The position numbers were made by a program, and so were the translations under genes. A model generated the notes under the pieces. It made no database searches, was not told the origin of the DNA, and saw nothing but the letters and a program-made list of their open reading frames with translations. From Eledone cirrhosa (lineage: Eukaryota), in contig OZ024741.1 of assembly GCA_964016885.1 (NCBI GenBank), positions 35,588,001 through 35,652,000 on the forward strand: DNA of 64,000 nucleotides, in the 5' to 3' direction. Positions 1,167 to 64,000 of this stretch are shown piece by piece. The stretch's first letter is position 1, and each line of letters begins with the position of its first letter.

Positions 1167-1380
1167 ACACTGACCACATGGCAAGAGTGGACACTCTGTT
1201 GTACACTGACCACATGGTAAGAGTGGACACTCTGTTGTACACTGACCACATGGCAAGTGGACACTCTGTTGTACATTGACCACATGGCAAGAGTGGACAC
1301 TGTTCCACACTGACCACATGCCAAGAGTGGACACTCTGTTCCACACTGACCACATGCCAAGAGTGGACACTCTGTTCTAC
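1167..1380. repeat. ~36-bp minisatellite, ~6 copies
   Basis: acactgaccacatggcaagagtggacactctgttgt repeated. Confidence 0.95.
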
Positions 1381-1467
1381 ATGTTGAAAAACCTTGACCA
1401 TGAGACAGTGTGTCCTCCCTTGGCAGGGGTCAAACTGCTGCTGTTTAAAAACAATTACAATTGCTAA

Positions 1468-12539: not shown

Positions 12540-12750
12540 AAAGAAATTCCTGAAAGAGGGTTCAGAAGTGAGCAAATTTTAACAATTGGCAACTGGAATG
12601 TTAAAAACCCTTACAGGTAAGGAGCAGGAACTAGTAGAGGTCAGATGTTATCAGCTAGATATAGTCAGGGATCCTCAATAAAGTTCCATAGTTCTGATGC
12701 TGTAGATTTAAATGGAAGATGAAAACTCCGCTATTCAGGTATGGTTCCAG
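12540..12750 (+). mobile_element. APE-endonuclease N-terminal fragment of an RTE-like LINE
   Basis: attggcaactggaatgttaaa..cttacaggtaaggagcaggaactagtagag reads IGNWNVK..LTGKEQELVE, then YQLDIV. Confidence 0.7.
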
Positions 12751-12766
12751 AAATGATTGCTCAGGC

Positions 12767-12890
12767 AGTCTTGTTACTCTAGAGTTTCGTCTGTTTATCA
12801 CTGTTGTCAGACAAAAACTCACTTCGGATGACCCTGTGATAAACAGGCAAAACTCCCAAGTAACAAGACTCACTATTTAGCCTTAATAAA
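12767..12890. mobile_element. Inverted pair of decayed hammerhead-bearing repeats (PLE pseudo-LTR-like)
   Basis: Minus copy 12767-12817: TTGT CTGACAA..CAGAC GAAAC TCTAGA GTA ACAAGACT. Plus copy 12821-12870: CGGATGA CCCTGT GATAA ACAGGC AAAAC TCCCAA GTA ACAAGACT, then AATAAA and (TA)n. Confidence 0.65.
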
Positions 12891-12934
<44 letters not shown>

Positions 12935-12977
12935 AAATAAAACAAGGACGAGTGGTTACTCCATTACGTTTATTGGT

Positions 12978-13064
12978 AGGTGACGCGCGTTTCGCCATTG
13001 ATCAGCTCAAGGTTCGATCTGTATCGATCTAGCCTGACTCTGTAATCAATGGCTCATCAGACCC
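12978..13064 (-). ncRNA. Minimal type I hammerhead ribozyme (HHR-A)
   Basis: Minus strand reads GGGT-CTGATGA-GCCATTGAT...ATCAATGGC-GAAA-CGCGCG-TC/ACCT: intact core, 9-bp stem II base, palindromic stem III, GUC triplet; AATAAA a few nt downstream (12969-12974). Confidence 0.85.
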
Positions 13065-13095
13065 TGGATATATATTATATATATATATAGGTGGT

Positions 13096-13189
13096 GTCCA
13101 GCAGAAGCAAGGGGGACAACCGTCTATGCATTTCAGGCTTGACTGACCTTCATCAGGACAGTCCCTCCCACTGCTTGCAACTGCTGGAC
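13096..13189 (-). ncRNA. Minimal type I hammerhead ribozyme (HHR-B) with long stem I
   Basis: Minus strand reads ACTGTC-CTGATGA-AGGT cagtcaa GCCT-GAAA-TGCA-TA/GACGGT; stem I extends through GGGAC/GTCCC, GCAA/TTGC and GTCCAGCAG/CTGCTGGAC. Confidence 0.82.
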
Positions 13190-13281
13190 TTGAAAATAGT
13201 CGAGAACATATAGTTTTCTCGTCTGTGTAAATGAGGTGATTAATCTCATTTGCATATGAAGCTGCATAAGTTGGCTCAACT

Positions 13282-13643
13282 TATATATATTTATGTGTGT
13301 GTTAAGTAATTCCAAAGACAAAGCAAAGGAAAAAAGAGTGCTCTATGTATAGAACAGAGCTATTTAATTAAAAAGTGAACAACACAAAATATAACTACTC
13401 CATTACCAAAGGTTTCTGGATCCCAGACAATATTGATATACGTCTGGATCCAGACGTATATCAACATTGTCTGGGATCCAGACGTATATCAACATAGTCT
13501 GGGATCCAGAAACCTTTGGTAATGGAGTAGTTATATTTTGTGTTGTTCACTTTTTAATTAAATAGCTCTGTTCTATACATAGAGCACTCTTTTTTCCTTT
13601 GCTTTGTCTTTGGAATTACTTAACACACACATAAATATATATA
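13282..13643. repeat. ~360 bp near-perfect spacerless palindrome (foldback) in TA repeats
   Basis: Arms are reverse complements around GGATCC at 13446-13451; the right arm has a 28-bp tandem duplication (acgtatatcaacat[t/a]gtctgggatccag). Confidence 0.95.
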
Positions 13644-14043
13644 TATTGCACTTCAGGCTATTTATTTTAATATTTTCATTAAAAAAAAGAGGATATTTTC
13701 AATAAGATGGCATTGCCCAGAGAATTAAACACTCAGTTGGTGGCCAACTTATTGAATGAGAATGGTGGTAATTCTGTGCTAGAACTTACTATTCCAAACA
13801 CACTGTTTATATAATTCTTTATTGAAACAACAGGATTTTATTTTTACCCAAATGACAAAAGTAAAACATAAAAGAAATGAATTCTGTATTATTTCTTGAA
13901 AAACTAACAAAAGTAAATTACGACCAAAATTATGAAACTTTAAAATCTTTATATAACATGAAAAAAAAAACAATTCACACAACATTTCACGATTTCTAAA
14001 CTTCTTTCTCCACATGTTCATATGACATGAACAAAGCATTGCT

Positions 14044-16141
14044 TGTGTATGTGTATGTTTTTCTCTATGTACGTCACATGTGTGTGTATGTGTATCTTTT
14101 TCTCTATGTATGTTACATGTGTATGTATGTTTTTCTCTATGTACATCACATGTGTGTGCGCGTGTATGTGTACGTTTTTCTCTATGTACATTATGTATGT
14201 GTGTGTGTATGTGTATGTTTTTCTCTATGTACATCATGTGTGTGTATGTGTATGTTTTTCTCTATGTACATCATGTGCGTGTATGTGTATGTTTTTCTCT
14301 ATGTACATCATGTGTGTGTATGTGAATGTTTTTCTCTATGTACATCATATGTGTGCGTGTGTATGTTTTTCTCTATGTACATCACATATGTGTGTGTATC
14401 ATCATCATCATCATCACCGTTTTACGTCCGTTCTTCCACGCTAGCATGGGTTAGACGGGTTGTCCTGTTGTGGGCAGTGTCTGGTCGGCTGACCATGCCT
14501 TGCTCATACAGGAACTGATCTGGCTTGATTTCTACAGCTGGATGCCCTTCCTAACACCAACCTCATTTACAGTGAGTGCTGGGTGCTTTTTCGTGGCGCC
14601 TACACGTCCACTTTACAGTGTGGGCTGGGTGCTTTTTTGCCGTGGCACCTCCACGACCACCTTGCGGTGGGGGGGGGGCATATTGTTTATATGCTTCAGC
14701 ATGTACCCATGGGAGGTCGGGTACCCTATATTACTGCGTGACGCCAGAAGTCACGGTCGTGTGTCATTGACTTTGAGAGGTGTAGTTGGGTAAGGTCGGC
14801 TTTTATCACCTCATCCCAAGTCATCTTGGGTCTCCCCACTCCGCGGTTTCCATCAACTTCTAGTGCTCTGCACCTTTTTATGCAGCTGTCATCCTTCATA
14901 CGCATCACATGTCCATACCAGCGTAACCGCCTCTCCTGCACGCAGCATTTGATTCCTCTTATGCTCAGTCTCTCTCTCAATTCCTTTATGCTTTGTCGTT
15001 CACGTATATTACTGTTACACATCCATCGGAGCATGCAGGCTTCGTTTCTCTCTAATCTACGTAAGTCTTCCACCTTCAGCGCCCAGGTCTCACTACCATG
15101 CAACATCGCTGTTCGGATACACGCATCATACAGTCTGCCTTTCATTCTGAGGGAGAAGCCTTTTGCAGCTAGCAGTGGTAGTAGTTCCCTAAACTTCTTC
15201 CATCCCGTTCTTACCCTAGTTATTGTACTTTCTGAGCACCCACCTCCGTTGCTAATTCGGTCACCTAGGTAGCAGAAGCTGTCTACTGTTTCTACAGGGC
15301 CCTCCCAGAGATTGGTGGTACTTGTTTCCTGTGGCTGTTTGCTTGCTGTTTCAGCACAGCTGCTGCATGTGAATCCTACATTCTTAATTAAGCTTCCTGA
15401 GATCCCGCTACATCTCTTGTGTACCCATTGTTTGCATTTGGGGCAAAGAATGGAGTTCCTACCTACACCTTTCCTACATACTGAGCAAGGCCATTTCCCT
15501 GAGGGGATCTGGGTTCTGTTTTCTCGTCTACTTATAAGGACCTTAGTCTTTGTCATGTTGACTTTGAGGCCCTTTCTCTCTAGTCCCTGCTTCCAGGTTT
15601 GGAATTTATTCTCTAGTTCTACCATAGATTCAGCTATGAGTGCGAGGTCATCAGCATACAGGAGTTCCCATGGGCATCCGGTCTTAAACTCCTCCGTTAT
15701 TGCCTGCAGGACTATGATGAACAGGAGAGGGCTAAGAACAGAGCCCTGGTGGACCCCAACCTGTACGCTAAATTCCTCGCTATACTCATTGCCAATCCTA
15801 ACTTTGCTGACTGCTCCCCTATACATGGCTTGTACCGCTTTCACAAGCCATTCATCTACTCCTAGTTTTCTAAGAGCCCACCAGATTACTGTGTATGTGT
15901 ATGTTTTTCTCTATGTACGTCACATGCGTGTGTGTATGTGTATGTTTTTCTCTATGTTTGTTGCGTGTGTGTTTTCTCTATGTACGTCACATGTGTATGC
16001 GTATATTTTTCACTATGTACGCCACATGTGTGTGTGTGTGTTTTTCTCTATGTACATCATATGTGTGTGTATGTATGTGTATGTCTTTCTCTATGTACGT
16101 CACGTGTGTGTATGTGTGTATGTTTTTCTCTATGTACGTCA
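14044..16141. repeat. ~30-40 bp minisatellite (tgtatgtttttctctatgtacatca(tg)n) split by the RTE insertion
   Basis: Same unit at 14044-14398 and 15890-16141. Confidence 0.92.
14399..15889 (-). mobile_element. 5'-truncated RTE-clade LINE with uninterrupted RT C-terminal ORF, PHD-like finger, long 3' UTR and (ATG)n tail
   Basis: ORF 14726-15844: GVHQGSVLSPLLF, LYADDL, CSVC..CPKC..HKRC..CSSC, YLG, RLRWYGHVMR, RGVGRPKMTW; inserted into a minisatellite. Confidence 0.93.
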
Positions 16142-20314: not shown

Positions 20315-20790
20315 GTCCTGCCTCTTTGTAGACATGGTTTCTACACATATACAAGTAATATTATCTCAGTTAAATATGGAGATGAGAATTGTTTTTGCTT
20401 TGTTGTTGTTGTTTATGGTTTTCTAATTAGTATTTTTTTCTTTTTTCACAAATGTTTACACAGGATTAGAGGTGCTTGTTTTCTCTTTACTTTACGTTTT
20501 TGACTGTCGTATATATAACAGGCAACCGTCGATAATTAAAAAGAGTGTCTCTTAAAACAGAGTGCCATATGTGCCAAACATATATGGCACAGAATTTGAC
20601 TGTCAGTTTGAGCAGATGAAGTCTTCTAGTTCTTGGTGAGAAAAACCACAAGAAACTTAGAGCAGATGTTGGAAGGATGAAATCAAACTTTTTAGTCCTG
20701 TCTTTTTTTGTTTTGTTTGGTTTGAATTTTGTTATAAATATATCCATTTTATCCTTTTTCTATTCCATTATTTTCCTATGGCTTGAACTT

Positions 20791-20880
20791 TCATGATTGA
20801 TTCTCTTTTATATTTTGTTCAATTTCTTCGGATTGTCTTTCATAGAATAAGAGTGCTGTTTCAGCTGTTCTTAATAAGGT
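20791..20880 (-). CDS. PDE9: PDE9-like terminal coding exon to TGA stop
   Basis: Strong pyrimidine tract ttcatttttctcag; phase 0 reading TLLRTAETALLFYERQSEEIEQNIKENQS*; position fits the last helix of the catalytic domain. Confidence 0.75.
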   Translation of the reverse strand, partial: TLLRTAETALLFYERQSEEIEQNIKENQS

Positions 20881-21261
20881 CTGAGAAAAATGAAGAAAGA
20901 AAAAAAGTAAAACTGTTAAAATTTATCTAAAGAGATAACAATAAATATATAGAAATTGACTAAGAATTTACATATAATTTAGTGTTATAAAGACATGAGG
21001 TTGAATCCATTTGAATAATATATCTTACATTATCACATGGATGTTTATGTAGGTGTGGCACGCCGCATATATTCTAGCCATTAGAAAAAACAATATGAAT
21101 GTTTCACCTTTGGAAAAGGGATGACTCAAGAAGAATATAGGGGCGGGGGGGGGGGGGGGGTACTATAATCTTTTGAGGGCTTAAGGTCTTAAAAGGATTC
21201 AATCTGGCCCTGACAAAACTATGTTATGAGTATGGCTGAGATATTTAATCATCATTATTAT

Positions 21262-21450
21262 TGGATTGGCAGTATCGGTAGAGAGTCGGACACCATGCTT
21301 TGAAACATAGAGTTACGTCCCTTTATGATCTGAGTTCAAATCCCGCTGAGGTTAACTTTGCCTTTCATCCTGACGGGGTCGATAAAATAAAGTACCAGTA
21401 ATGTACTGGGTAATTTCTGGCCTTGTGCCTAAAAATAGAAACAATTATTA
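21262..21450 (+). mobile_element. tRNA-derived SINE
   Basis: A-box-like tggcagtatcgg, B-box gagttcaaatccc, conserved body gcctttcatcc..ggggtcgataaaataaagtaccag, (ATT)n tail; other copies at about 173-290(+), 3105-3250(+), 7503-7680(-), 8495-8700(-), 9328-9520(-), 17080-17180(-), 36970-37157(-). Confidence 0.85.
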
Positions 21451-21598
21451 TTGGATTGGCAATCCACTGCCAATCCAATAATAATTGTTTCTACTTTAGG
21501 CACAAGGCCAGCAATTACCCAGTGTATTACTGGTACTTTATTTTATCGACCCCGTCAGGATGAAAGGCAAAGTTAACCTCGGCGGGATTTGAACTCAG
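21330..21598. repeat. SINE-derived inverted repeat with ~130-bp arms and a very short spacer
   Basis: 21330-21460 is the reverse complement of 21469-21598 with few mismatches. Confidence 0.92.
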
Positions 21599-22177
21599 GT
21601 CCCTTTACGTATCAGCCACTCAGGGGTCAATACCTTCCCCCAAAATTGCAGGCCTTGTGCCTAAATCAGAAACCATTATTATTAGCAATGGCAGTACTTT
21701 AAAAGCAATAAATATTTTTATCAGATTTCAGTATTGTCGAGTTCAAATCTCAAGTAGCTCCATCCTCTGTTGTTGAACTGTTGTTAGATACAACTTTTCT
21801 GTCTTTTAACTGTTCTTTAAAAGACATTTCAAATACTTTAATCTCCATTTGTCATTAACTGTCATGTTGTATGATGATGGTGATGATAATCCTTACAGTA
21901 GATGATGGTGACTATGATGAAGGTGATAATAGTGGTCATGATGATGATGATGTTTGATGGTGAATATGGTGGTTAATGATGATTGATGATGATGATGGTG
22001 GTGGTGACAATAACAATGATAATATTGAAGGTGACAAAGTTGGTTGCTGATGATGTGTCATAGTTCAGACAGTTTATATTGTATACAAATAGCATTCAAA
22101 ATCTCTCAATAAAAATGACTATAAAAAATGAAACAGGTATCATAAACTAAAGAAGTACAAAATTTTGGTCAACTTAC

Positions 22178-22324
22178 TACTGCTTTAGGGAAACACTGGC
22201 AGAGGGCCTTGAGCAAAGGTATCAAAATATTACTTATAAAGTAAACCTGAGATTTAGATTTCACATGAGTGTCTCTGTCCATGAAACTGGTCACAGGCAA
22301 CCCTTCAAGTTTTTCAGTGTCACT
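22178..22324 (-). CDS. PDE9: PDE9-like exon (invariant Gln and clamp Phe region)
   Basis: ttacag acceptor and GTAAGT donor; 147 nt, phase 0-0; SDTEKLEGLPVTSFMDRDTHVKSKSQVYFISNILIPLLKALCQCFPKAV. Confidence 0.94.
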
Positions 22325-23600
22325 CTGTAAAATAAAAAAATTAAAAGAATTAAAATTTACATTTTTCAAATAAACAATAACAAAACAAGCATTTTAACCC
22401 ACATATTTCTAATGAAAAACACTGATTATGATTTTCAAATAATTTTCAAAATAATCAAGAATTTTTAGGGATTTAGCAATATAACTAATTTTCTCATTTT
22501 CTGGTGTTTGAAACATAACTTAACAAAGGTGCTTATATAAAATAATGGCTAAATGTTTTCAGATACACCAGCATGGAGGAATGCACCTTAAATGAGATGA
22601 TGGTGGTGATGATAAACATTTTAACCCTTTTGTTACCATTCTAATGAAAGATTACCTATAATTTGCAGATAATTTTGAATTTAGAGGGATTTAGTAGTAT
22701 ACTTAATTTTCTCATTATTCATGTAAGAACATAAAGGTTCTTACATAAAATTATGCTGAAAGGTTTTTAGATAAATATAAACACTTTAAAATAAACAGTT
22801 TTGTATTGTAGAACCAGGGATGGTTTCTGGTGGTATGGTATCAAAGCGGTAGAACATAGTTCACCTACATCATAGGAAATCTCATAAGCTGATCTTCTCC
22901 AGAATGTGATATAGCTGTGGTCATTAAGCGTCCAGCCCAACTCTACTCTATTACCAGAAAATGTCCTGACGTGACCTCTACACACAAAGCAGAAAATCAC
23001 ATGACCTTCTTCCCTAGAGATCGTTGATGAAGAGAAGGAGAAAGCCTCCAATGCTATTGCTGCTTTCTGCCTTCCCTGCCATGACCTCACAGTTACCTGT
23101 CACTTTTGGCATAGCCCTCAAGCCCCATGACATCACTGACCCCTACACTTCTGGCTATTTCCCCTACTAAAGCAAATAAACCTTGTGGGGCCCTGTAACA
23201 GGCATAATCATGGAGTCCTTTTTGACACAATGTTTTACCGCCAGATGTCCTTCTTGATGCCAACACTTTTAGCTGCCATCTCTTTGGTTACAGGGATACA
23301 TTGTACCTATTCTAAACCGAATACACAAAATATACACAGCAAACCAACACCAACAACACCACCACTGCCAACACTGATGACATCACAAACACCAACACCC
23401 TGACCAACAACACCAACACCCTGATCAACAACACTACCAACATGACCAATAATCTCATTATCACTACCAACACCACCAACACCCCCACTCCCAACTACAA
23501 CGCCGCAACCAACTACAACACCACTACAACACCACCATTAACAACAACAACACCCTCAGCTCTATTATAAAAGGTCAATATTTAGAGGTTGAGAACTGAC

Positions 23601-23705
23601 CTGTGCAAAGAACTCATTTAGCAGACAATCCAGCCATACCTCAGCCACTGTAGTAGGTCGGAGTTCATTAGAAACATCTGCAACTTTTATAAGCACTGCC
23701 ATTAA
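23601..23705 (-). CDS. PDE9: PDE9-like exon (K.AD.SNE.RP motif); absent from the supplied ORF track
   Basis: ttttgtag acceptor and GTCAGT donor; 105 nt, phase 0-0; hand translation [35 protein letters not shown]. Confidence 0.95.
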
Positions 23706-24029
23706 CTACAAAATAGAGAGGAGAAAACGTCAAATAGAATTCTTGTCATATTTTACAAAACATTTGTAGAAGTAAAACAAACAGAAAGTAAAACTAGTAA
23801 AAAGTAATCCCTTGGCAGAGGTTTGGCTGTGTGGCCAAGGAGTTGGCTTCACAACCACATCGTTTGAGTTAGGTCCCATTGTGTGGTACCTTGGACAAGT
23901 GTAAAATTTGGTAGACAGAAGCAGATTCATTATCATCATTTAATGTCCACTTAAAGACAAAAGACAAGCATAGAAGGATTGGGAAAATGGGGGAAGTAGA
24001 GACTGATACTCAGTCACTAAAAGAGCAGC

Positions 24030-25995
24030 TAGATGTCAGGTATACTTAGCATGCAGAGAAGCTGAGAGTAGGAGGTTTGCCAATGTTTTGCAATGAGAGG
24101 ATCAGAGGTGTGAAGTGTTCCGCATTGCAAGGCAGTGTGTCAGTGTAAATCAAGATGTTGTTGGAGATAAGTGTGTCCGAAATGATACTGGTACACTTAG
24201 AGTCACTGATGCTCAGAAAAAGGAAGCCTGGAAATGTCATTACAAGAGACTGATGGATGTTGAGAATGAATGGGGGAGAGAAAAACTACTCCCAACAGAC
24301 TCAATAGAGGGACTAGCTATTGAGAATGATGACTATAAGGTCAAAGAGGCAATTAAGGAAATGATAAGACTGCTGGACTGTCAGGGATAGTTGCTGAGAT
24401 GCTGAAGGCATCAGGAGAAGTAGAAACTAAACTGGTTGCATGCATAGTCAATCAAGCTATATATGGTTCAGTCATACCCAAAGACTGGTTTAGCAGTATT
24501 CTTGTAAATTGCTACAAAGATAAAGGGGATGCTCTGCAGAGGAGCAATTATAGGGGCATAAAACTGATGGATCAGGTTATGAAAGTGACAGAAAGAGTGC
24601 TAACACAACTAATTAGAGAAAGAGTCAAATTAGATGAGATGCAGTTTGGTTTTGTGCCTGGGAAGAGTACAACAGATGCCTTCTTCTTAGTGAGACAACT
24701 ACAAGAGATGTTCTTAGAGAAGAATAAGCCATTATATTTAGCTTTTGTTGAAGTAGAGAAGGCCTTTGACAAAGTACCCCGATCTGTCATCAGGTGGTCC
24801 CTAAGGAAACTAGGTGTAGAGGTATGGCTTGTGATGACAGTGCAAGCTATGTACAGAGGACCTGTCAGTAAAGTGAGAGTAGGAATTAGTTTAGTGAGGA
24901 ATTCCAGATACAAGTAAGAATTCATCAGAGTTCGATCCTCAGTCCACTCTTATTCATTATAGTTCTCCAAGCCATAACAGAGGAGTCTAAGACTGGCTGC
25001 CCATGGGAACTTCTCTATGCTGATGATCTGGTACTTATAGCAGAATCAGTAGAGGAGCTAGAGAATAAATTGTGGTTATGGACACAGCAGTTGGAATCAA
25101 GAGGACTGACATTGAACCTAGCTAAGACAAAAGTGTTGATAAGTAGAAAAGAGGACAAAACTCTGTTTCCATCAGGGAAATGGCCATGTTCAATATGTAG
25201 AAAAGGAGTTGGCAAAAATTCTATAGAATGTACACAATGCTGATCTTGGGTACACAAGAGGTGTAGTAGTATAGCAGGCAAACTAACAGGAAGGGAAAAC
25301 TTCATATGTGGTAGATGTTCAGGAAAATTTTATAGTAGAAGTATCAGTGATAGGCACACTTTTCAAATGCAGCCAGGATCTATAGAGGTGGTTGATAGCT
25401 TCTGAATCCTAGGTGATCAGTTTAGCAAGAGAGGAGGATGCTCCGAGGTCATAGTATCTAGAATAAGGACAGGATGGAAGAAATTTAGGGAGATGCTTCC
25501 TCTGTTGACAACGAAGGGTTTCTCCCTACAAATGAAAGGTTGGTTATATGATGCCTGTGTGAGATGCATGATGCTGCATTGTAGTGAGATATCGGAGGCA
25601 ACTGCAGAGGATATGTGATGGCGGAGAGAAATGAAGCAACCATGCTCCGATGGATGTGTAATGTCAATGTAGTTAACGACCAAGCATAGATGAGTTGAGA
25701 GTGAAACTGTAGTGTGCAGGAGAGAAGACTATGTTGGTATGGCCATGTGATTCGCATGGAAGATGACCGCTGGGTAAAGAAATGCCAAGAAATCCCAGTG
25801 GAAGGAAGACGCAGTAGAAGAAGACCACGAAAAACATGGGCGGAGGTGGTGAGAGCTGACCTTAGATTGCTGAACTTTACAGAGGAGATGACGAGGGACC
25901 GTGACGAATGGAGAGATGCTGTGCTGAAGAAGACCCGTCTCACCCTTGCAAGTAGGGAAAAGCAGACATAAAATGGTGATCATGCTGATGATTTC
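24030..25995 (+). mobile_element. Decayed RTE-clade LINE (short 3' UTR subfamily)
   Basis: Frameshifted fragments SNYRGIKL, MQFGFVPGKSTTDA, KAFDKVPR, YADD, PHD-like Cys cluster, RLCWYGHVIRM; ATG-like tail. Confidence 0.92.
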
Positions 25996-26488
25996 CCTGC
26001 TAGCAACAGTGTGGCAGATTTTTATAGACCAAGTCAGTACTGAAGCAGGGCTACTGATCTCCCAGAGAAGCTGATTGTATCATGTAATGTCTGTGTGTGT
26101 AGGTCTTGTAACTTAGTGGATCATGGTTCAACAAAAAAAGAGATTGATAAAATAAGTACCAGATTTGAAAAAAATAAGTACTAGGGTTGATATAGTAGAC
26201 TATCCCGTTAACCTTTAGCACGCTATACATTTTTATAAATTGTTTCCCTTGACACTGCATTATGTATTAAGGGGAGATTACTCTATTGGAAACATAATGC
26301 GTCTATAACGTCCAGAAGATTAAAGCAGAGTCCCAGCATGGCTGCAGTTCATTGACGGAAATCAATAAAATACTAAGAGAGCAGAGAAAAGTGTCTAAGG
26401 AAATTGATGGAGATGTGTGGCAGTAGGAATTATACAGTAATTGTGTATTTGAGTATGTGCGTGTATTAGAGATATTTGTCAAACATAC

Positions 26489-26591
26489 CTGCAAACGGTG
26501 CTCTTTTTTATCAACATCAAACTCGAGCAAAATAGTCTCAAAATTTTTTAAGATGCTAAAATGGTTAGCCATGTCTGTACTTAAAATAGAG
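26489..26591 (-). CDS. PDE9: PDE9-like exon (IL.TDM..H motif)
   Basis: ttttcag acceptor and GTATGT donor; 103 nt, completes the split codon AG|C; SILSTDMANHFSILKNFETILLEFDVDKKEHRLQ. Confidence 0.93.
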
Positions 26592-27009
26592 CTGAAAAGA
26601 GAAACCAAAAGTGATATTTGTCAAACATGCTCCTTCTTCTGCACAAAATAAACTTAACCCATTTATTACCATATTTCTAATGAAATACTGCCCATGATTT
26701 GGAGATAATTTTGAAAATAATCAAGAATTTGGAGAGATTTAGTGAAATAACTTTCTCATTATTAAACTTTTCATTACCATATTTCTAGTGAAAGTAACAA
26801 ATTATTTTTAAACAATATAAACATTTTAAAATAGGCAGTTTTGTGCCATTAGAACCACGGCTAGTTTTAGGTAGTTTGGTATACAAAATGTTAAGCTATA
26901 GTTTGGAGCATTAATTAACAAAATTTTCTGATATAAAAATATGATAGAAAGTCTTTAAATAAACAAAAACATTTTAAAGAAAACAGCTTTGTATCACAGA
27001 ATCAAAAAG

Positions 27010-27480
27010 GATGACTGTATGACAGCTGTGTGTGAAGTGCAATGGTGCATGGTAGATAAAACATGAGCTGTTACTGCAGAGGAACTGCAGAGGACATGCA
27101 TAGACTGGAAAGAAATGAAGCAACCATGCTTCATTTGATGTGCAATGAAAATGTGAGAGAAAGACAGAGCTTGTGTGAGTTGAAGGAGAAGCTGGGTTTA
27201 AGAAGAATCCAAAGTGGTGTGTAGGAGATAAGACTGAATTGGTATAGACATGTGATGTGCATGGATATTGATTGGTGGGTGAAGAAGTGCCAGGAAATCC
27301 CAGTGGAGGAAAACCAAGAAAGACCTAGGGAGAGGTGGTGAGAGCTGATCTCAAATCATTGAGACTCACAAAGGAGATGATGAAGGAAAGTGGTGAATGG
27401 AGAGATGCTGTGCTGAAAAGACCTGTCCAACCCATAAATAGATGGAAAAATTGGAAGTAAAAATGATGATGATGATGATG
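27010..27480 (+). mobile_element. RTE LINE 3' fragment
   Basis: Similar to 25550-25990; (GAT)n tail. Confidence 0.8.
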
Positions 27481-27684
27481 AACCAGGGGTAGTTTTAACA
27501 GAAAGGTTAAAGGAAATTAAATCAAGTAATAACTTAACTGTTTATCATTTTAAAATAAATTATTACATGTTTGATACTGGTTTTGGGAATTATTACATTT
27601 TACTAGTTTAATAAGCAGAGAATTAGAGTTATTAGAGTATAGGGCAAAATACTTTGCGCTATTTATTTTGGCTCTATACACTTT

Positions 27685-27870
27685 GAGTTCAAATCTTGCC
27701 AAGATAACTTTGTTTTTCACACTTTTGAGATCAGTTCAAACCATACCAAGATCAACTTTATTTTTCACATTTTGGGGATCAGTTCAAATTTTGCCAAGAT
27801 CAACTTTGTTTTTCCTATTTTGGGGATCAGTTCAAATCTTACCAAAATCAACTTTGTTTTTCACATTTTC
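27685..27870 (+). repeat. Tandem amplification (4 copies, ~48 bp) of the SINE B-box segment
   Basis: agttcaaatcttgccaagatcaactttgtttttcac..ttttggggatc repeated. Confidence 0.8.
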
Positions 27871-29884
27871 AAATAAAGTAGCAGTTCAAGGCAGTAGCAA
27901 ATTAGTGGGATTGTTAATGTATCAAACAAGATGCTTTGCAGTATTTGCTCCAGCTTTCTACCTGAGTTTAAATCTTGCTGTTGCCTACCTGAGTGGTAGA
28001 CTTAGTCTATCACTTGGTTTAACAACACCACCTCACCCTTGGGTGTCTTTAGCGGAGCCTACTCTGTAAGCATTAAAGCCAGATTTCTGGTTTGAGAATA
28101 CCTTCCTTTCTGTCTCCTCCTTCAGTTTCAGAGGTCCTGAAAAGGATCAAAGGCACAGCCTGTCTATCCCTGACTAAACAGTAAAAATAAAAATAAAAAT
28201 TCTATAGGAATTTTCAGGTATCATTTTTGTTCTATATACACCTATCCTGGTGCTACAACTAAACTCACAGACCTTTATTTGTAACAAAAGACACACTTCA
28301 CAGAATGATGGGAATAGAACCAGTGATAAATGTTATGAAGAGAAATAGAATGAGATGGCTGGGTCATGTGTTGAGGAAAGATGAAAGTGATCTGATGAGA
28401 AAGAAATGATGGAAATGAATGTAAAAGGAAGTAGACATAGCTAAAGATGATGACGGAGGAAATAAAGGGATGTAGACAATAGGGATAAATGGAGAAGTTT
28501 GTCATGGGGTCATCATTAGCAGGGAAGATGGCCTTAAAATGCTTGTTGTTCTTGATGATGATGATGTTTGACTGGTAATTATTTTATTGACTCTGATGAA
28601 GGTGGATGAAGGTCAGTGAAATAACAAACCTGCCAGAATATGGACTTAATGGTAAAAGCTGGTGATGATGATGATGATAAAAGGCATTCCAGGCCCGACT
28701 ATTTAAACTTTCTAGGAGTATATAGGACTAAATTATTTAATATCTCCTTTGCTTCTTAACTCAACTGATACCAGCTAACTTGAAATTTACCCTGGTTCTC
28801 TCATACAAAAACTGTGTTTTTTCTTTTTTAATCTAAACCTCTTCCATCATGAATTTATAGAGGAACCTTTAGAGTTTTTCATTAGAAATGGGTAATTAGA
28901 GAAGAGTTAAGATGTGGTTTATGTGCTTTAGAAGATCCCTTATTTGCTTGTATCTTTATGCAGTTACACAATGAAGTGTTTTTTAATTCTAATTGCAAGA
29001 AGAACTGGCCTGATTCTATTTTTAATTTTCCTGCTAATCTTCAGCATTAAAAATATAAAACAACATTATAGAAAGAAGCAGACAACAAAATTAGCTTTCA
29101 TTCCACTTGTTAAATCTAAATGTGTAATGAAGGATTAAAGTAATCATATAACAGGAGTGATGGTATAATGGTATAGTGACATTATGGAATAATTGGATTA
29201 AACAATGTCATTTCATTTGGACGATGCTGTTATCATCATTAATTTTCCACAGTAATTACAATCTCTGAGATTATGTTGATTAGGAAAATAGTAACTGAGT
29301 GGTAGAAGTTGTATTCAAAGTAGAAGCAAGAAAACAACAACAGCTACAACAGTAACTACATCAATAACAACAACAGCAACTACAGCATCAACAACAAGAA
29401 TAACAAGCTTCTCTGTTATACTTACACTGCTAACTATAGCAGCCAAATCCCCTCTAATCAGACCACATTGTCTTTCTTCCATTACTATACTTCTAATGAA
29501 AGACACTTCATATGATTTTCAAATAATTTTGGAAATAGAAATTTGGAGGGATTTAAGCAATATAATTAAATTTCTCATTATTAAGTTGGTTTTGGGAACA
29601 TAGCTTAACAAAGATTCTTACATGAAACACGATGGACAGTTTTTAGATGAAGATACACACTTTAAAGCAAACAACTTTATATCATAAAACCATGGGCACT
29701 TTCAGGAGATTTGGTATCATCATCATTTAATGTCCATCTTCCATGCTAGCATGGGTTAAGAAGTTAAAAACCAAAGGATATATTAGATGATATAATCCTA
29801 GATATACAATACCTGAATAAAAAGATCTGAGACAGTCATAATTAGAATGTATTTAATCACAGGTCTAGCATTGCTCTATTGGGT

Positions 29885-30200
29885 GTGTTGAGAGAAAAAA
29901 CTGTGTGTAAGAAGAATTAGATGTAGTGTGCAAGAGAGAAGATTGCCTGGTGCAGGCATGTAATGTGTATAGATGATGAATATTAGGTGACGAAATTCCA
30001 GGAATTCCCAATAGAAAGATGTTGTAGACATAAACTGAGGAAAAGTTGGGCAGAGGTAGTGAAAGTGGATCTCAGGATGTTGAACTTCACAAAGGAGATG
30101 GTAAAGGAAAGGGACAAGTGAAGGGACAGTGTACTACAGAAGCCACATCTAACACATGCAAGCATAGAAAATAAAAATGGATGTAAAAGTGATGATGATA
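29885..30200 (+). mobile_element. RTE LINE 3' fragment
   Basis: Similar to 25700-25990; (GAT)n tail. Confidence 0.75.
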
Positions 30201-30225
30201 AAACAACAAGAGAGAAATGTCTTAC

Positions 30226-30380
30226 CTAATAACACCTTGACGGATAATAGTGAATTGTTGTTGAGTTACATTCTTCAACAGTTCATATTTTTCTATTATT
30301 TGGAAAGCCACATCACAGTGATGGTTCTCTAATGGTGACATGTCATTATAAGTCCGTGCCAGTATGGTATGTGCATGCAC
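30226..30380 (-). CDS. PDE9: PDE9-like exon (YND.SPLENHH motif)
   Basis: cttcag acceptor and GTAAG donor; 155 nt, phase 0-2; VHAHTILARTYNDMSPLENHHCDVAFQIIEKYELLKNVTQQQFTIIRQGVI. Confidence 0.95.
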
Positions 30381-31511
30381 CTGAAGTGGAGAGAATAACA
30401 CATTGTTAACCATATATATAAAAATAATGATTAATTTGGTTAAAATGAAATCTGGAAAGATATGGTTGAAAATGCTAGAGAAAATAGAATTGAATAAAAA
30501 CTTTTCTGTAACTATTATTATTATCCATTCCTAACATTTTCAGTTATTAACTCAAAACATCCTGTAGTGATTCAGCAGAAAATATCTAAAAGCTAACTTA
30601 TTATTCAAATGTTTATAGTATCTTTATTAGTGAACAGAGCATTGTAAAATTTTGCAGTAAACTAAAGTAAAAACTTCAATTTTTAATGAGATGCAGTCAT
30701 ACTGCTATTTTATACTTTTCAAAAATGTCTTCCTAATGTGGTTTCATGTGGTACAGGTTGTTAAGAATTAAACATTTTTAATTAAAATCAAAAACTACAG
30801 AATGTCAAATTCAAAAATAAGTGTTTTTTCCATCCAGTCTGAAAATACAAATATCCTTAGTATTGGTGATCTACACGATAAACACACCCTGTAAAGTAGT
30901 TCGGGATAAGAAGGAAACCCAGCCATAGAAAAAATAAATAAAGAGTTAGGAGGACTCTTTGACTGTGTGAAAGACATGTCAATCTTCCTTGTGTTGATGC
31001 TATGATAAAAGGCATTTGGTACAGTTCTGGATGGTATGCAAATGAGATGAAGACTACTGATGTATTTGAATAGTCAGTACAGTACAGGAACATATGTGAG
31101 ATGTAAACCCCCAACTCATCTGAGAAGTCAGTAGCTCTGCTTCAGTATTGACTCAGTCTGTCAAGACCTGTCCAACCCTTGCTAGCATGGAAGCCAGACG
31201 TTACAAGATGATAAATTTTCATTGTCATCATTGCCATCATCGTCGTTACACCTGCTTTTCTATGCTGGTATTGAAGCAGATATAGCAGTGCTATAGGTGT
31301 GTTTAATCACAGGGGACTTGATACTAAACAACAATAACATAAATACTGGATTAAAGGAAAGATTAAATGTAGCTTTAAATGTAACTTTCTTTTTCTACTT
31401 AGTAGATCTGGAGGAAAGAGCAGTGACCATAACGTTTGCAGGCTCCAGGAAACTAATGAGGTTGATGTCAATGTCATCTCTAAACCATTGCAAGTTATAA
31501 GATTCAATAAT

Positions 31512-31818
31512 TTTAACCCTTTTGATACCAAACTGCCTGAAGCCACCTCTGGTTCTATGACACAAAACTGTTTGTTTTGAAATATTCTCATATTTCCAAT
31601 GAAAGGCACTGCTTATGATTTACAAATATATATTTTTTAAGTAATCAATAATTTGGAGGGATTTAGTAATACAACTAATTAACTTTCTGTGGAACTTAAC
31701 TAAGGTTATTTATAAAATTGCAATAGGTTTTCAGACAAATATAAATACTTAAAAAAAAATAGCTTTGTATCATGGAACCAGGGGTGGTTTCAGCTAGTTT
31801 GGTAACAAAAGGATTAAA
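31512..31818. mobile_element. TTAA-flanked MITE with ~70-bp imperfect TIRs (second family)
   Basis: ttaacccttttgataccaaactgcc.. / ..gctagtttggtaacaaaaggattaa; related partial copies near 2922-3330, 22394-22850, 26655-27000, 29490-29720. Confidence 0.7.
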
Positions 31819-33036
31819 ATGCCAATATATTACACATCTGAATGGTTAACTGTAGAAAAAGCATCTAGCCGCATAAACACTTGCTCTGAAAGAGAAATGG
31901 CCCATTTCACTTGTTAGGAGTTCAACTAATGTTTGAGAATATCACTATCCCTTAGGCCTTCTGTCATTCACTTTAACCCGTCCATTACCATATTACTAAT
32001 GAAAAACACTACCTTTCATTTTCATATAATCAGACCCGGTATCAGAATGAGTACAGCTTTCATTATGTAAAATCTCCCCATTTTGGGGCACTTTTTTTCA
32101 TAGTACTCCTTGCTTAGGTTTTTAGAGGTTGGCAGGTCTGTACAATCTTGAAAATCCTCATTATCTTGCTGTGCTGGTTGCATGGATCATCATGACTCTC
32201 CTACATCCATTGCTCATGGCAGGTCCTCCAGATTGCACTCAGCATCCTTACAGCAAGAATTTGGAGAGATTTAATAATATAACTGACTTTCTCATTATTA
32301 ACCTGATAGAAATAACAGCTAAATATATCCTCAATCCAACCCTATCATTTTTAAAAAGTAAGAACACACTGAAAAATGTACTCCTAGCTAAACAGAAACG
32401 ATGGGATGGTCAATGTTAGAATGTCTCTTATGATGGGACTGCTCAATCATGTCTGATCTGTGGATAAAGAACAATGTCAACAACATTTGTTTCCATAAAT
32501 TGTGAAGAAAATATCCAAATCATCATCATCATTGTTTTTATGTTCATTTTCTTTTTCATGCTGGCATGATGTGGATGAGACTTCATGAAGTAGTGTTTCT
32601 ATGGTTGGATGCCCTTCCTGACACCAACCCACTGCAGGACATAAATAAATGTCACTGGTTGCTTTCATCATCATCATTTTACATCCGCTTTATGTTGTCG
32701 ATATGAAGATGTATACAGTAAACTGACACACATATAAACATGCATACATAATGGGCTTCTTTCTAGTTTCCATTGACTAAGTTCACTGACAAGATATTGG
32801 TCAGCCCAAAACTTTAGTAGAAGACACATGCCTAATGTGCTATTGAGTATGATGAAATCTCATATCATGAGCTGCAAAGTAAAATTCTTAATCACAGTCA
32901 TGCCTGCACCTATACACACACACATACATACACACACACACACATATATATATATATACATACACACACATATATACATAAATGTATATATATATACATG
33001 CACACACATATATACATAAACGTATATATATATATA

Positions 33037-34045
33037 TCATCATCATCATCGTTTAACGTCCCTGTTCCACGCTTGCATGGGTTTGGACGGGGGTTTTCCC
33101 ACTTGAGGCAAGAGTGGTTGTCTTGCTCGCATAGGACTGTCTGGCAGGTTTTCTACAGCTGGATGCCCTTCCTAACACCAACCACATTTACAGTGTGGGA
33201 CTGGGAGGTTTTTACCGTGTTGCCTACATGGCCACATTACAGCGTGGACTGTGTGTTTTTTTGTCGTGACACCTACACGATCTCATTTGTTTCGGCCTGG
33301 ATGTTGTGGCACCAACATAACTTTGCATTGAAGGGGGCGGTGTGGATGGGGTGGGACGGGAGTGTATTTTGTTAGAGATGCCTACTGACTAGTAGGTTTT
33401 ACTTTGTATTTAGGTAAGGCGGGTCTTCTCTGTTACTGAGTACCGCCAAAGGTCTCAGTCCAGTGACATTGTCTTGGAGAGGTGTAAGTGTGTGAGGTCG
33501 GAATTTATCAGCTCGTCCCAGGTTTTCCTGGGTCTGCCTACTCCGTGGCTACCATCTATCTTTATTGGCCTGCACTTTGTTATACAGCTGTCGTCTTTCA
33601 TGCGCATCACGTGACCATACCAACGTAGCCTTCTCTCGAGTAAACAACATCTGATCCCTCTTATTTCTAATTTTTTCCTTAGTTCGTTTATGCTTTGCCG
33701 TTCACGTATATTACTATTACACATCCAGCGGAGCATGCAAGCTTCGTTTTTCTCTAGTCTGCGTATATCCTCTGCACACAATGCCCAGGTCTCACTGCCA
33801 TGCAACATTGCTGTTCGTATGCAGGCATCATACAACCTGCCTTTCATTTTTAGGGAGAACCCTTTAGCGGCTAATAGTGGTATAAGCTCTCTGAACTTTT
33901 TCCATCCAGTTCTAACTCTAGCTACTGTACTTTCAGAGCACCCTCCCCCACTGCTGATTTTGTCACCCAGGTAACGGAAGCTGTCCACTATTTCTATAGA
34001 ACCCTCTGCGCAATTGAAAGAGTTAGTATTTTGTGGGCACTTGCT
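33037..34045 (-). mobile_element. 5'-truncated RTE LINE with long 3' UTR
   Basis: ORF 33455-33988 closely similar to 14726-15844; followed by the same type of 3' UTR and (ATG)n tail. Confidence 0.92.
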
Positions 34046-34163
34046 GCTACTTACACATACACAATATATACATACTCATACATATACACACACACACTCA
34101 CACATATATATATAATCTGATAACTTCCACCTCAAAAAAGATAGCCCATGATGAAGTACTTAC

Positions 34164-34286
34164 ATGATAAAAATTGTTAAAACCAGAATGTTCCAGATCA
34201 TGACAGATTGCAGCTAGAAGTAATGCGAGGATCTCTTCTTCAGAAAATATGCTGCACAAATCTAAAAGCCAAATAAGGCAATACAA
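34164..34286 (-). CDS. PDE9: PDE9-like phosphodiesterase, internal coding exon with HD metal-binding motif (first exon seen in window)
   Basis: ttccag acceptor and GTAAGT donor; 123 nt, phase 0-0; LYCLIWLLDLCSIFSEEEILALLLAAICHDLEHSGFNNFYH resembles the class I PDE AAICHDLDHPGYNN segment as I recall it from PDE9A. Confidence 0.93.
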
Positions 34287-34856
34287 CTGGAAAAGAAACA
34301 AAAACGACATGAAAACTCCAAGAATTATTACAACAGTTAATAAATTAAAATATTTCATCATTTTACGTCTGCTTTTCCGTGACCAAGGCACCCTATCTTA
34401 GGAGATCTCAAGGACTCCAAGACTTTTCTCCAAGACTGTAACGGAAGAGAAATAATTCCTAGTCTTACGTGTTATCTTTACACTCTGGGAGGAGGAAGAG
34501 AGAGACTGTGAGAGGGAAGGACAGAGAGAAAGATATGGAAGAGTAGAGAGCAAAGGGATGGAGGGATAGAGAAAAAAGCTGGAGGGGAGAGGGAGGAGGG
34601 AGAAAGATGTGGGTTTCCAGTTACGATTCAAGAAATTTGGGCTTCTAATAAAATATATAAAATACTTCACATATTGAACACATACATATATATATAGGAC
34701 AGTGAATTAGCAGTACCATTAGAACATTGGATATTATACTTTGCAGTATTTGTTCTAGATCTCTGTAAATTAGGTTCAAATCTCTCAACTTTGCCATTCA
34801 TCCTTTAAGGTTGATAAACAAAACACTAGTCCAGTATTGGGGTATATACATATATA

Positions 34857-47836: not shown

Positions 47837-50800
47837 CATACAGTACAGTCTATATACTATACATACAGTGACATTATACAGTACAGTCTATATACTATAC
47901 ATACAGTGACATTATACAGTACAGTCTATATACTATACATACAGTGACATTATACAGTACAGTCTATATACTATACATACAGTGACATTATACAGTACAG
48001 TCTATATACTATACATACAGTGACATTATACAGTACAGTCTATATACTATACATACAGTGACAGTATACAGTACAGTCTATATACTATACATACAGTGAT
48101 ATTATACAGTACAGTCTATATACTATACATAGTGACATTATACAGTACAGTCTATATACTATATATACAGTGACATTATACAGTGCAGTCTATATACTAT
48201 ATATACAGTACAGTCTATATACTATATATACAGTGACATTATACAGTACAGTCTATATACTATACATACAGTGACATTATACAGTACAGTCTATATACTA
48301 TAGATACAGTGACATTATACAATACAGTCTATATACTATACATACAGTGACATTATACAGTACAGTCTATATACTATATATACAGTGACATTATACAGTA
48401 CAGTCTATATACTATATATACAGTGACATTATACAGTACAGTCTATATACTATACATACAGTGACATTATACAGTACAGTCTATATACTATACATACAGT
48501 GGCATTATACAGTACAGTCTATATACTATACATACAGTGACATTATACAGTACAGTCTATATACTATACATACAGTGACATTATACAGTACAGTCTATAT
48601 ACTATACATACAGTGGCATTATACAATACAGTCTATATACTATACATACAGTGACATTATATAGTACAGTCTATATACTATACATACAGTGACATTATAC
48701 AGTACAGTCTATATACTATATATACAGTGACATTATACAGTACAGTCTATATACTATACATACAGTGACATTATACAATACAGTCTATATACTATACATA
48801 CAGTGACATTATACAGTACAGTCTATATACTATACATACAGTGACATTATACAGTACAGTCTATATACTATATATACAGTGACATTATACAGCACAGTCT
48901 ATATACTATACATACAGTGACATTATACAGTACAGTCTATATACTATATATACAGTGACATTATACAGTACAGTCTATATACTATACATACAGTGACATT
49001 ATACAGTACAGTCTATATACTATATATACAGTGACATTATACAGTACAGTCTATATACTATACATACAGTGACATTATACAGTACAGTCTATATACTATA
49101 CATACAGCGACATTATACAGTACAGTCTATCTACTATACATACAGTGACATTATACAGTAGAGTCTATATACTATACATAGTGACATTATACAGTACAGT
49201 CTATATACTATACATACAGTGACATTATACAGTAGTCTATATACTATACATACAGTGGCATTATACAGTACAGTCTATATACTATAGATACAGTGACATT
49301 ATACAGTACAGTCTATATACTATACATACAGTGACATTATACAGTACAGTCTATATACTATACATACAGTGACATTATACAGTACAGTCTATATACTATA
49401 CATACAGTGACATTATACAGTAGAGTCTATATACTATACATACAGTGACATTATACAGTACAGTCTATATACTATACATACAGTGACATTATACAGTACA
49501 GTCTATATACTATACATACAGTGACATTATACAGTACAGTCTATATACTATACATACAGTGATATTATACAGTACAGTCTATATACTATACATAGTGACA
49601 TTATACAGTACAGTCTATATACTATATATACAGTGACATTATACAGTGCAGTCTATATACTATATATACAGTACAGTCTATATACTATATATACAGTGAC
49701 ATTATACAGTACAGTCTATATACTATACATACAGTGACATTATACAGTACAGTCTATATACTATAGATACAGTGACATTATACAATACAGTCTATATACT
49801 ATACATACAGTGACATTATACAGTACAGTCTATATACTATATATACAGTGACATTATACAGTACAGTCTATATACTATATATACAGTGACATTATACAGT
49901 ACAGTCTATATACTATACATACAGTGACATTATACAGTACAGTCTATATACTATACATACAGTGGCATTATACAGTACAGTCTATATACTATACATACAG
50001 TGACATTATACAGTACAGTCTATATACTATACATACAGTGACATTATACAGTACAGTCTATATACTATACATACAGTGGCATTATACAATACAGTCTATA
50101 TACTATACATACAGTGACATTATATAGTACAGTCTATATACTATACATACAGTGACATTATACAGTACAGTCTATATACTATATATACAGTGACATTATA
50201 CAGTACAGTCTATATACTATACATACAGTGACATTATACAATACAGTCTATATACTATACATACAGTGACATTATACAGTACAGTCTATATACTATACAT
50301 ACAGTGACATTATACAGTACAGTCTATATACTATATATACAGTGACATTATACAGCACAGTCTATATACTATACATACAGTGACATTATACAGTACAGTC
50401 TATATACTATATATACAGTGACATTATACAGTACAGTCTATATACTATACATACAGTGACATTATACAGTACAGTCTATATACTATATATACAGTGACAT
50501 TATACAGTACAGTCTATATACTATACATACAGTGACATTATACAGTACAGTCTATATACTATACATACAGCGACATTATACAGTACAGTCTATCTACTAT
50601 ACATACAGTGACATTATACAGTAGAGTCTATATACTATACATAGTGACATTATACAGTACAGTCTATATACTATACATACAGTGACATTATACAGTAGTC
50701 TATATACTATACATACAGTGGCATTATACAGTACAGTCTATATACTATAGATACAGTGACATTATACAGTACAGTCTATATACTATACATACAGTGACAT

Positions 50801-62800: not shown

Positions 62801-64000
62801 ATTATACAGTACAGTCTATATACTATACATACAGTGACATTATACAGTACAGTCTATATACTATACATACAGTGACATTATACAGTACAGTCTATATACT
62901 ATACATAGTGACATTATACAGTGCAGTCTATATACTATATATACAGTGACATTATACAGTACAGTCTATATACTATACATAGTGACATTATACTATACAG
63001 TCTATATACTATAGATACAGTGACATTATACAGTACAGTCTATATACTATACATACAGTGACATTATACAGTACAGTCTATATACTATACATACAGTGAC
63101 ATTATACAGTACAGTCTATATACTATACATACAGTGACATTATACAGTACAGTCTATATACTATACATAGTGACATTATACAGTACAGTCTATATACTAT
63201 ACATACAGTGACATTATACAGTACAGTCTATATACTATACATACGGTGACATTATACAGTACAGACTATATACTATACATAGTGACATTATACAGTACAG
63301 TCTATATACTATATATACAGTGACATTATACAGTACAGTCTATATACTATACATACAGTGACATTATACAGTACAGTCTATATACTATACATACAGTGAT
63401 ATTATACAGTACAGTCTATATACTATACATAGTGACATTATACAGTACAGTCTATATACTATATATACAGTGACATTATACAGTACAGTCTATATACTAT
63501 ACATACAGAGACATTATACAGTACAGTCTATATACTATACATAGTGACATTATACAGTACAGTCTATATACTATATATACAGTGACATTATACAGTACAG
63601 TCTATATACTATACATACAGTGACATTATACAGTACAGTCTATATACTATAGATACAGTGACATTATACAGTACAGTCTATATACTATACATACAGTGAC
63701 ATTATACAGTACAGTCTATATACTATACATACAGTGACATTATACAGTACAGTCTATATACTATACATAGTGACATTATACAGTACAGTCTATATACTAT
63801 ACATACAGTGACATTATACAGTACAGTCTATATACTATAGATACAGTGACATTATACAGTACAGTCTATATACTATACATACAGTGACATTATACAGTAC
63901 AGTCAATATACTATACATAGTGACATTATACAGTACAGTCTATATACTATATATACAGTGACATTATCCAGTACAGTCTATATACTATACATACTGTGAC
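47837..64000. repeat. 38-bp satellite array, >16 kb, running off the window end
   Basis: Consensus atacagtgacattatacagtacagtctatatactatac with 36-bp deletion variants; three TACAGT sub-motifs per unit. Confidence 0.99.

Follow-up and report, generated by a model that had tools for sequence, protein, structure and literature searches.

A type I hammerhead with an unusually long helix II from a very high-copy repeat of Eledone cirrhosa, probably the truncated end of a Penelope-like element

A 64,000-nt stretch of the Eledone cirrhosa genome (contig OZ024741.1, positions 35,588,001 to 35,652,000; hereafter the window) carries on its minus strand a short motif that an earlier note, made from the letters alone, had described as an intact minimal hammerhead with a rod-like stem II, young or constrained, and dependent on dimers for cleavage. 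The locus raises the question of whether this motif is a hammerhead ribozyme, what kind of DNA carries it, and whether this copy could act. The repeat context, helix I, and the neighboring hammerhead-bearing units, which that note had omitted, are considered here together with the core. Our analysis indicates that the segment, termed unit A, carries a type I hammerhead motif, belongs to a very high-copy repeat, and is probably a truncated end of a Penelope-like element (PLE). Because no PLE coding sequence could be linked to it, we infer the family membership. This particular copy is probably a passenger, that is, ordinary transposon debris.

A descriptor scan of unit A defines a complete type I core on the minus strand, with the CUGANGA, GAAA, and UH elements arranged around three helices (Table 1). 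The positions previously assigned to CUGAUGA, GAAA, the palindrome, and the cut all hold on this strand, and AAUAAA, claimed within ~10 nt, begins 7 nt past the predicted cut. Helices II and III are closed and helix I is open, and the pairs G10.1-C11.1 and A15.1-U16.1 are present. Helix I comprises only 4 bp (13064-13061 with 12978-12981), the last of which is a G-U pair. No nucleotide is left unpaired between A9 and position 10.1, as G13053 pairs with C12994. A check for the contact between loop 1 and loop 2 found neither a terminal loop after 4 bp of helix II nor a loop 1 in this copy. The designation "minimal" applies loosely, as the min-HHR of PMC4209133 lacks helix III, whereas unit A has 2 bp and a palindromic tetraloop. 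A SECIS-like reading of helix II, compared by eye with the SECIS motif, was rejected, since no AA lies at the expected distance.

Table 1. Positions of the hammerhead-bearing units and of the elements of unit A in the window.
Feature	Position	Strand	Description or evidence
Unit A	12932..13067	-	3' end of a hammerhead-bearing repeat of very high copy number, likely truncated on its 5' side, 136 bp; (TA)n bounds, depth, loose ends
Unit A helix I, 5' strand	13061..13064	-	4 bp with 12981-12978, last pair G-U
Unit A catalytic box CUGAUGA (C3-A9)	13054..13060 (13060-13054)	-	
Unit A helix II	12994..13053	-	60-nt rod, 9 Watson-Crick bp at base and three inner helices
Unit A catalytic box GAAA (G12-A15.1)	12990..12993 (12993-12990)	-	
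Unit A palindromic helix III, ACGCGCGU	12983..12990	-	8 nt; 2 bp and tetraloop as monomer, 8 bp as predicted dimer
Unit A predicted cleavage site	12981..12982	-	After GUC, C17 = 12982; hammerhead consensus
Unit A AAUAAA	12969..12974	-	Starts 7 nt past predicted cut
(TA)19	12894..12931	.	At 3' end of unit A, common to unit D (tail to tail)
Interrupted (TA)n	13068..13089	.	Between units B and A
Unit B	13090..13277	-	Different high-copy repeat, intact hammerhead, long extended helix I; core scan, folding
Unit C	13277..13648	.	175-bp inverted repeat, hammerhead-bearing end and inverted copy, (TA)n at both ends
Unit D	12767..12890	+	Decayed hammerhead, AAUAAA 12885-12890; alignment, reads

Statistical evidence supports the hammerhead identity. 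Scanning both strands of positions 1-47800 yields exactly two hammerheads, unit A and its neighbor unit B, compared with a mean of 0.02 matches in 300 block-wise dinucleotide shuffles of the same region. Any match at all occurred in six of these shuffles, and none of the 300 contained one with a palindromic helix III. Helix II of unit A alone is markedly stable (z = -5.06, 0/200 shuffles equally stable), and its 9-bp base shows pair probabilities of 0.82-1.0 in all five contexts folded. The three inner helices of the proposed stem of ~60 nt are present as well. The Rfam model RF00163 (Hammerhead_1), which has a short helix II, is covered in full by its match to unit A on the right strand (span 12980-13062), scoring 14.3 bits against a gathering score of 34 (E 6.9). 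At gathering thresholds, the whole window gives mir-1994 alone. A looser scan allowing core mismatches pointed to three further places, none convincing, and did not recover two other neighbors, units C and D. Pattern scans of microbial and viral collections returned 1, 0, 0, 2, and 3 matches, and all six loci are chance occurrences without helices.

Folding predictions indicate that a single copy would not adopt this structure readily. The earlier note had proposed folding a 116-nt stretch around unit A; this stretch is not unusually stable as a whole (z = -1.68, 15/200 shuffles equally stable) and its lowest-energy monomer fold pairs the core with the cleavage site. Across five contexts, the hammerhead fold of the monomer lies 4.3-8.3 kcal/mol above the minimum, with a helix III probability of at most 0.07. 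The probability of helix I is 0.3-0.6 when the construct is short but only about 0.01 when it is longer. Unconstrained co-folding of two 93-nt copies gives a double hammerhead with open cores, containing an 8-bp inter-strand helix III (probability 0.79-0.98) and both helices I, at about -10.7 kcal/mol relative to two monomers. In the fold of the full 136-nt dimer, helix III forms and helix I does not. These models agree with the dimer requirement put forward earlier as a prediction, in that a single copy of unit A would misfold and cleavage is predicted to need paired copies. No tandem partner in cis is available at the locus, as the neighboring hammerhead of unit B carries another palindrome. 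An A-B heterodimer in cis was considered and rejected (duplex -3.1 vs -13.3 kcal/mol for A-A). In the literature, PLE hammerheads with a short palindromic helix III show weak cleavage and act as dimers (PMC4209133), and the combination of a short palindromic helix III with dimer cleavage also appears in PMC6765202. For an axolotl ribozyme with a helix III of 2 bp and a tetraloop, 22% of the monomer was cleaved in 1 h, whereas the dimer cleaved far better (PMC7229834). Because a helix III of this kind allows some monomer cleavage, the dimer dependence of unit A may be partial.

The repeat context of unit A was defined by aligning four sequencing runs, RAD reads included and X1 in the form of contigs, to positions 12600-13800 at 80% likeness. 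Summed contig depth in X1 over unit A amounts to 306,758 and 204,960 in two bins, compared with 9.95-16.4 in unique flank, and RAD reads are about 1,000-1,400 deep, compared with under 1 in unique flank. Since summed depth is no copy number, only its order of magnitude is used, which puts the number of related copies in the thousands or tens of thousands. Coverage is as high over the distal part of helix II as over the core, and record 9 of run X4 aligns ungapped over 12962-13062 with 17 other letters; therefore, the long helix II is a family trait. This helix tolerates change within the family. A 10-nt deletion at 13022 occurs in 120/1189 and 145/1459 reads, with one start and thus perhaps at one locus, and a 2-nt deletion at 12985 in X4 leaves a shorter palindrome (depth 114.9/2072.7). 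Variant evidence rests on 40 of 320 variant rows, one of them in unit A, which is too few to show covariation within its helix II. For joints, the listing covers 15 of 45, for loose ends 24 of 1111, and for pieces 16 of 11,277. Likeness of at least 99% over the whole 12600-13800 stretch is limited to 1173/10,680 contigs and 161/6026 reads, and these proportions give no hint that the family spread very recently around this copy.

The description of this copy as intact is not supported. Only 7 nt separate C3 of unit A from the (TA)n run in the window. Contigs clipped at 13049 (99 in X1 and 7 in X4, consensus agreement 0.65-0.66) extend by a median of 65-83 nt into non-(TA) sequence. Because reads of other copies continue upstream with different sequence, unit A is likely 5'-truncated inside helix I. 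The loose ends behind 13049 represent a sister subfamily. Its low-agreement consensus has CCGACGA as the first box, with C in place of U4, and contains CAUUAC farther upstream. By eye, this CAUUAC is the complement of GUAAUG, which comes after AAUAAA in the window. Hence, helix I of the family is likely longer and encloses AAUAAA in an internal loop, a form that was likely lost from unit A. AAUAAA is retained in all three consensuses listed for loose ends at 12980. Depth and loose ends together place unit A in a dispersed high-copy family with 5'-truncated copies. Units A and B were also considered as one element, which was rejected, as the listed pieces on A or B (16 of 11,277) run into other sequence; none of these listed pieces spans the (TA)n between them, in an alignment that skips TA runs. 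Another candidate link, GTAATGGAGTA common to units A and C, is likely due to chance, because most reads carry three more letters there in A.

The borders of unit A and its composition provide further clues. (TA)n flanks the unit on both sides, and on the 3' side a U-rich tract is followed by (TA)n without poly(A), with both sides of the cut site retained. Eight CpGs occur in 136 nt, an observed-to-expected ratio of 1.17 compared with 0.27 for the window, and this level is reached by 0.4% of 4767 sliding windows. The earlier observation of retained CpGs is thus correct, yet the youth deduced from it is not upheld: four of the eight sit inside the palindrome or the C11.1-G12 step, and the copy departs from most covering reads at 12978 and misses 3 nt at 12961. 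Moreover, octopus transposons have been reported as unmethylated (PMC9476566), so that CpG content is a poor clock for unit A.

Four hammerhead-bearing repeat ends that are unrelated to one another, unit A among them, lie side by side in less than 900 bp. (TA)n runs stand between them, and each has a helix III sequence of its own. The hammerhead of unit B lies 96 nt upstream of unit A on the same strand (C3 at 13156, palindrome AUGCAU at 13131-13126, predicted cut after 13125; folding z = -4.29), with summed X1 contig depths of 107,530 and 41,300. Within its family, letters at 13146 and 13160 convert two wobbles into C-G pairs, the free N7 position (13152) varies, and a both-sided change at 13147/13137 turns G-C into A-U in helix II, each at depth 53.6/65.7 in X4. 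The adjoining stretch 13174-13296, upstream of hammerhead B, is multi-copy (depth up to 180,040 in X1) and contains two small hairpins; multi-copy sequence also lies beside the cluster at 12600-12760, with depth up to 5,211 in X1.

Units C and D carry an inverted truncated duplicate, which unit A lacks. Unit C is likely a fold-back duplicate of a third hammerhead-bearing end, with 168 of the first 170 columns identical between its arms and a summed X1 contig depth of up to 161,602 over the inverted repeat. It is truncated at the start of helix II, so that the sense arm retains helix II, GAAA (13416-13413), and helix III and has lost the first box; reads continuing past 13450 (282 and 268) supply the missing CUGACGA. 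This family also has a long helix II, of about 36 nt. At its center, a 28-nt unit is repeated 2.5 times, and a transcript across the unit would form long double-stranded RNA. Unit D has two core changes at this locus, in the first box (12825-12831) and at position 12849. The consensus core letters are found in family reads and in its own inverted arm (12767-12801, 30/35 identical), and the family letter at 12826 completes the box in 32/33 and 26/26 plus-strand reads. The unit ends in AAUAAA-(TA)19, tail to tail with unit A. By eye, helix III of units C and D resembles the kind listed for (TA)n-targeting Hydra-clade PLEs.

The surrounding window contains a cyclic nucleotide phosphodiesterase (PDE) gene, represented on the minus strand by six exons that begin at 34304 and reach a stop near 20793 (20788-34304). 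These exons are 48-82% identical to an Octopus vulgaris protein, the match of the last exon being weak (E 4e-4). In a search with six candidates, the single match was a PDE exon 86% identical to an Octopus vulgaris protein, and this match and mir-1994 both indicate an octopod host. Unit A lies about 7.7 kb downstream of the likely stop, and units A, B, and C share the strand of the gene. A location of the cluster in an intron was rejected: the last coding exon likely ends near 20793 (on the same weak match), and the cluster is thus outside the PDE coding introns. No exon for PDE residues 1-246 was found in the window; therefore, the upstream intron may include the terminal satellite. Positions 1-47900 contain 248 ORFs of 55 aa or more, and the 147 that passed a complexity filter were scanned with Pfam, giving four PDEase_I and three RVT_1 matches. 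None of the 147 matches a PLE reverse transcriptase or GIY-YIG nuclease, an outcome in keeping with truncation. The ORFs with reverse transcriptase matches at 14729-15910 (-) and 24357-25240 (+) look like ordinary LINEs, presumably of the RTE type, and are unrelated to the motif. The former is an open LINE frame of 394 aa with a PHD-finger match, flanked by the same 37-nt minisatellite.

Comparison with described systems supports the likeness to PLE-type hammerheads that had been suggested for this motif. As in unit A, the PLE pseudo-LTR hammerheads of PMC4209133 (Aedes and Drosophila types) are of type I, with consensus boxes, G10.1-C11.1, a short helix I, a palindromic helix III, and an A/U-rich 3' flank. 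They too occur mostly as dispersed single truncated copies with predicted dimer activity. Unit A lacks the additional nucleotide that PLE min-HHRs typically have after A9, as do several published PLE rows. Unlike these pseudo-LTR hammerheads, unit A has no linked ORF. Hydra-clade PLEs (PMC8557442) share with the locus their (TA)n targets and a hammerhead near the 3' end, and an inverted 5'-truncated copy, as seen here in units C and D, is described for one of their families; both (TA)n targets and inverted 5'-truncated duplicates are thus described for PLEs in that paper. Insertion beside other PLE copies has been reported (PMC6765202), as has an expansion of Penelope in octopus (PMC8967140). 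The sequence of unit A does not match the Hydra-1_Obim hammerhead (PMC8557442).

The main difference lies in helix II. The boxes of unit A are 60 nt apart, compared with about 23 nt at most, counted by eye, in 56 rows of Fig. S3 of PMC4209133, and its GC palindrome is combined with a 60-nt helix II, compared with about 26 nt at most, again by eye, in 26 animal rows of 34 in File S2 of PMC8557442. Among the 82 animal rows in these two published tables, even the longest helix II has only about half the length of that in unit A. In the same File S2, Selaginella PLE-X1 has a long helix II region of 9 bp with a 35-nt loop, flagged as deviating; it differs from unit A in being a plant element that lacks an endonuclease and targets 28S. 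Two spike-moss PLE-X rows show box distances of about 48-54 nt. Hence, a long helix II has a precedent in plants, outside animals in the compared tables. The hammerhead search of Craig et al. used a 7-17 nt spacer (PMC8557442). In that paper, eight Naiads, including Naiad_Ovul, are flagged with half cores 35-50 nt apart. An identity of the octopus Naiad "HHR_half_core" with the motif of unit A was rejected, as the sequences differ and GAAA precedes CUGAUGA in Obim and Ovul. Four short motifs of unit A have no match in the available supplement of PMC8557442, where line breaks could hide matches, and the last ~600 nt of the Naiad consensus from Obim, Ovul, Omin, and Esco show no resemblance to unit A by eye. 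Searches of mainly open literature gave no account of octopus hammerheads that share a long helix II as a family, and the repeat itself may already be catalogued in Repbase or Dfam.

These features can be joined into a likely history. Unit A is predicted to behave as a dimer-type PLE hammerhead, distinguished from published animal examples by its long helix II. Most likely, a (TA)n microsatellite was the target of a Penelope-like retroelement, of which unit A is the 3' end (pseudo-LTR), truncated on its 5' side. Cleavage by the family ribozyme is predicted after GUC and chiefly in dimers that the 8-bp palindrome keeps together. A full element would rely on the motif to reduce tandem or read-through transcripts to RNA of unit length and to part the body from AAUAAA. 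The DNA of unit A was likely copied from uncleaved (or re-ligated) read-through RNA by an EN+ PLE reverse transcriptase, since both sides of the cut site are kept and a poly(A) tail is absent, and copying likely stopped about 7 nt past the core. For a Poseidon element, uncleaved RNA served as insertion substrate in vitro, insertion did not need cleavage, and no RNA-seq ends were reported at the site (PMC11167929). This copy would have lost the upstream sequence that could extend helix I in the sister subfamily. Given that loss and the lack of a cis partner with the same palindrome, unit A is probably a near-silent passenger that would cut only in trans, with the transcript of another copy.

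Other origins were weighed against this one. Unit A could be a solo monomer of a non-autonomous, non-coding element similar to retrozymes, mobilized by PLEs via circular RNA, which we regard as fairly unlikely. Non-LTR retrozymes (PMC7229834; bioRxiv 10.64898/2026.07.22.740005) resemble unit A in their high copy number and in a type I fold whose helix III has 2 bp and a tetraloop. They are better cleaved as dimers and are related to pLTRs, from which their widely dispersed monomers derive (bioRxiv 10.64898/2026.07.22.740005), and mussel retrozyme hammerheads likewise lack the usual tertiary-loop nucleotides. The very high copy number of unit A and the lack of a linked ORF would suit such an origin. 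Nevertheless, unit A lacks the canonical 4-bp helix II with terminal loop, and no tandem array is seen: the window holds no head-to-tail repeat of it, none of the 15 listed joints (of 45) loops back within it, and a 1905-nt contig among the 16 listed pieces (of 11,277) has one ungapped piece on it. AAUAAA beside the cut and the targeting of (TA)n also fit PLE ends.

That the host has kept this copy to stop read-through transcription of the PDE gene, by self-cleavage or as a poly(A) element, appears very improbable. The position of A, B, and C on the PDE strand, about 7.7 kb past the likely stop codon, the intact cores of A and B, and the retained CpGs speak in its favor. However, an intact core is nothing special among thousands of look-alike copies, helix I is cut short and has a pairing probability of about 0.01 in context, neighbors C and D are broken, and unit A is not inside a coding intron. 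Least credible, to the point of being nearly negligible, is a chance arrangement of short motifs around an unrelated hairpin repeat. Such an accident would account for an Rfam score below the cut-off and for a lowest-energy monomer fold that is not a hammerhead, but it conflicts with the absence of palindromic matches in 300 shuffles, with three more hammerhead units within 600 bp, and with the variation of family B, which affects N7 and changes both partners of a helix II pair, each at the same depth in X4. The preferred reading remains that of a truncated PLE end.

A broader possibility, unlikely but of wider consequence, is that octopods carry a PLE-derived family of some ten thousand hammerheads that their 60-nt helix II conceals from Rfam and published descriptors, with the arm under selection and activation in trans. 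If so, the long arm might act as a protein-docking site or as a substitute for the loop-loop contact, the family-specific palindrome would let transcripts of dispersed solo copies activate each other in trans, and any read-through transcript carrying a copy could be cut. Limits on helix II length, as in the Rfam model or in the 7-17 nt spacer of PMC8557442, can miss a very abundant animal hammerhead family; therefore, PLE ribozymes have probably been undercounted in cephalopods. The four PLE-type ends at this locus also provide a convenient set for studying family specificity and trans activity of dimer cleavage.

Elsewhere in the window, the mir-1994 hairpin scores 51 bits at 1167-1425 (+) and is directly preceded by about six tandem 36-nt copies containing the start of its 5' arm. 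At the opposite end, a 16-kb array of a 38-nt satellite occupies 47838-64000 and runs off the window.
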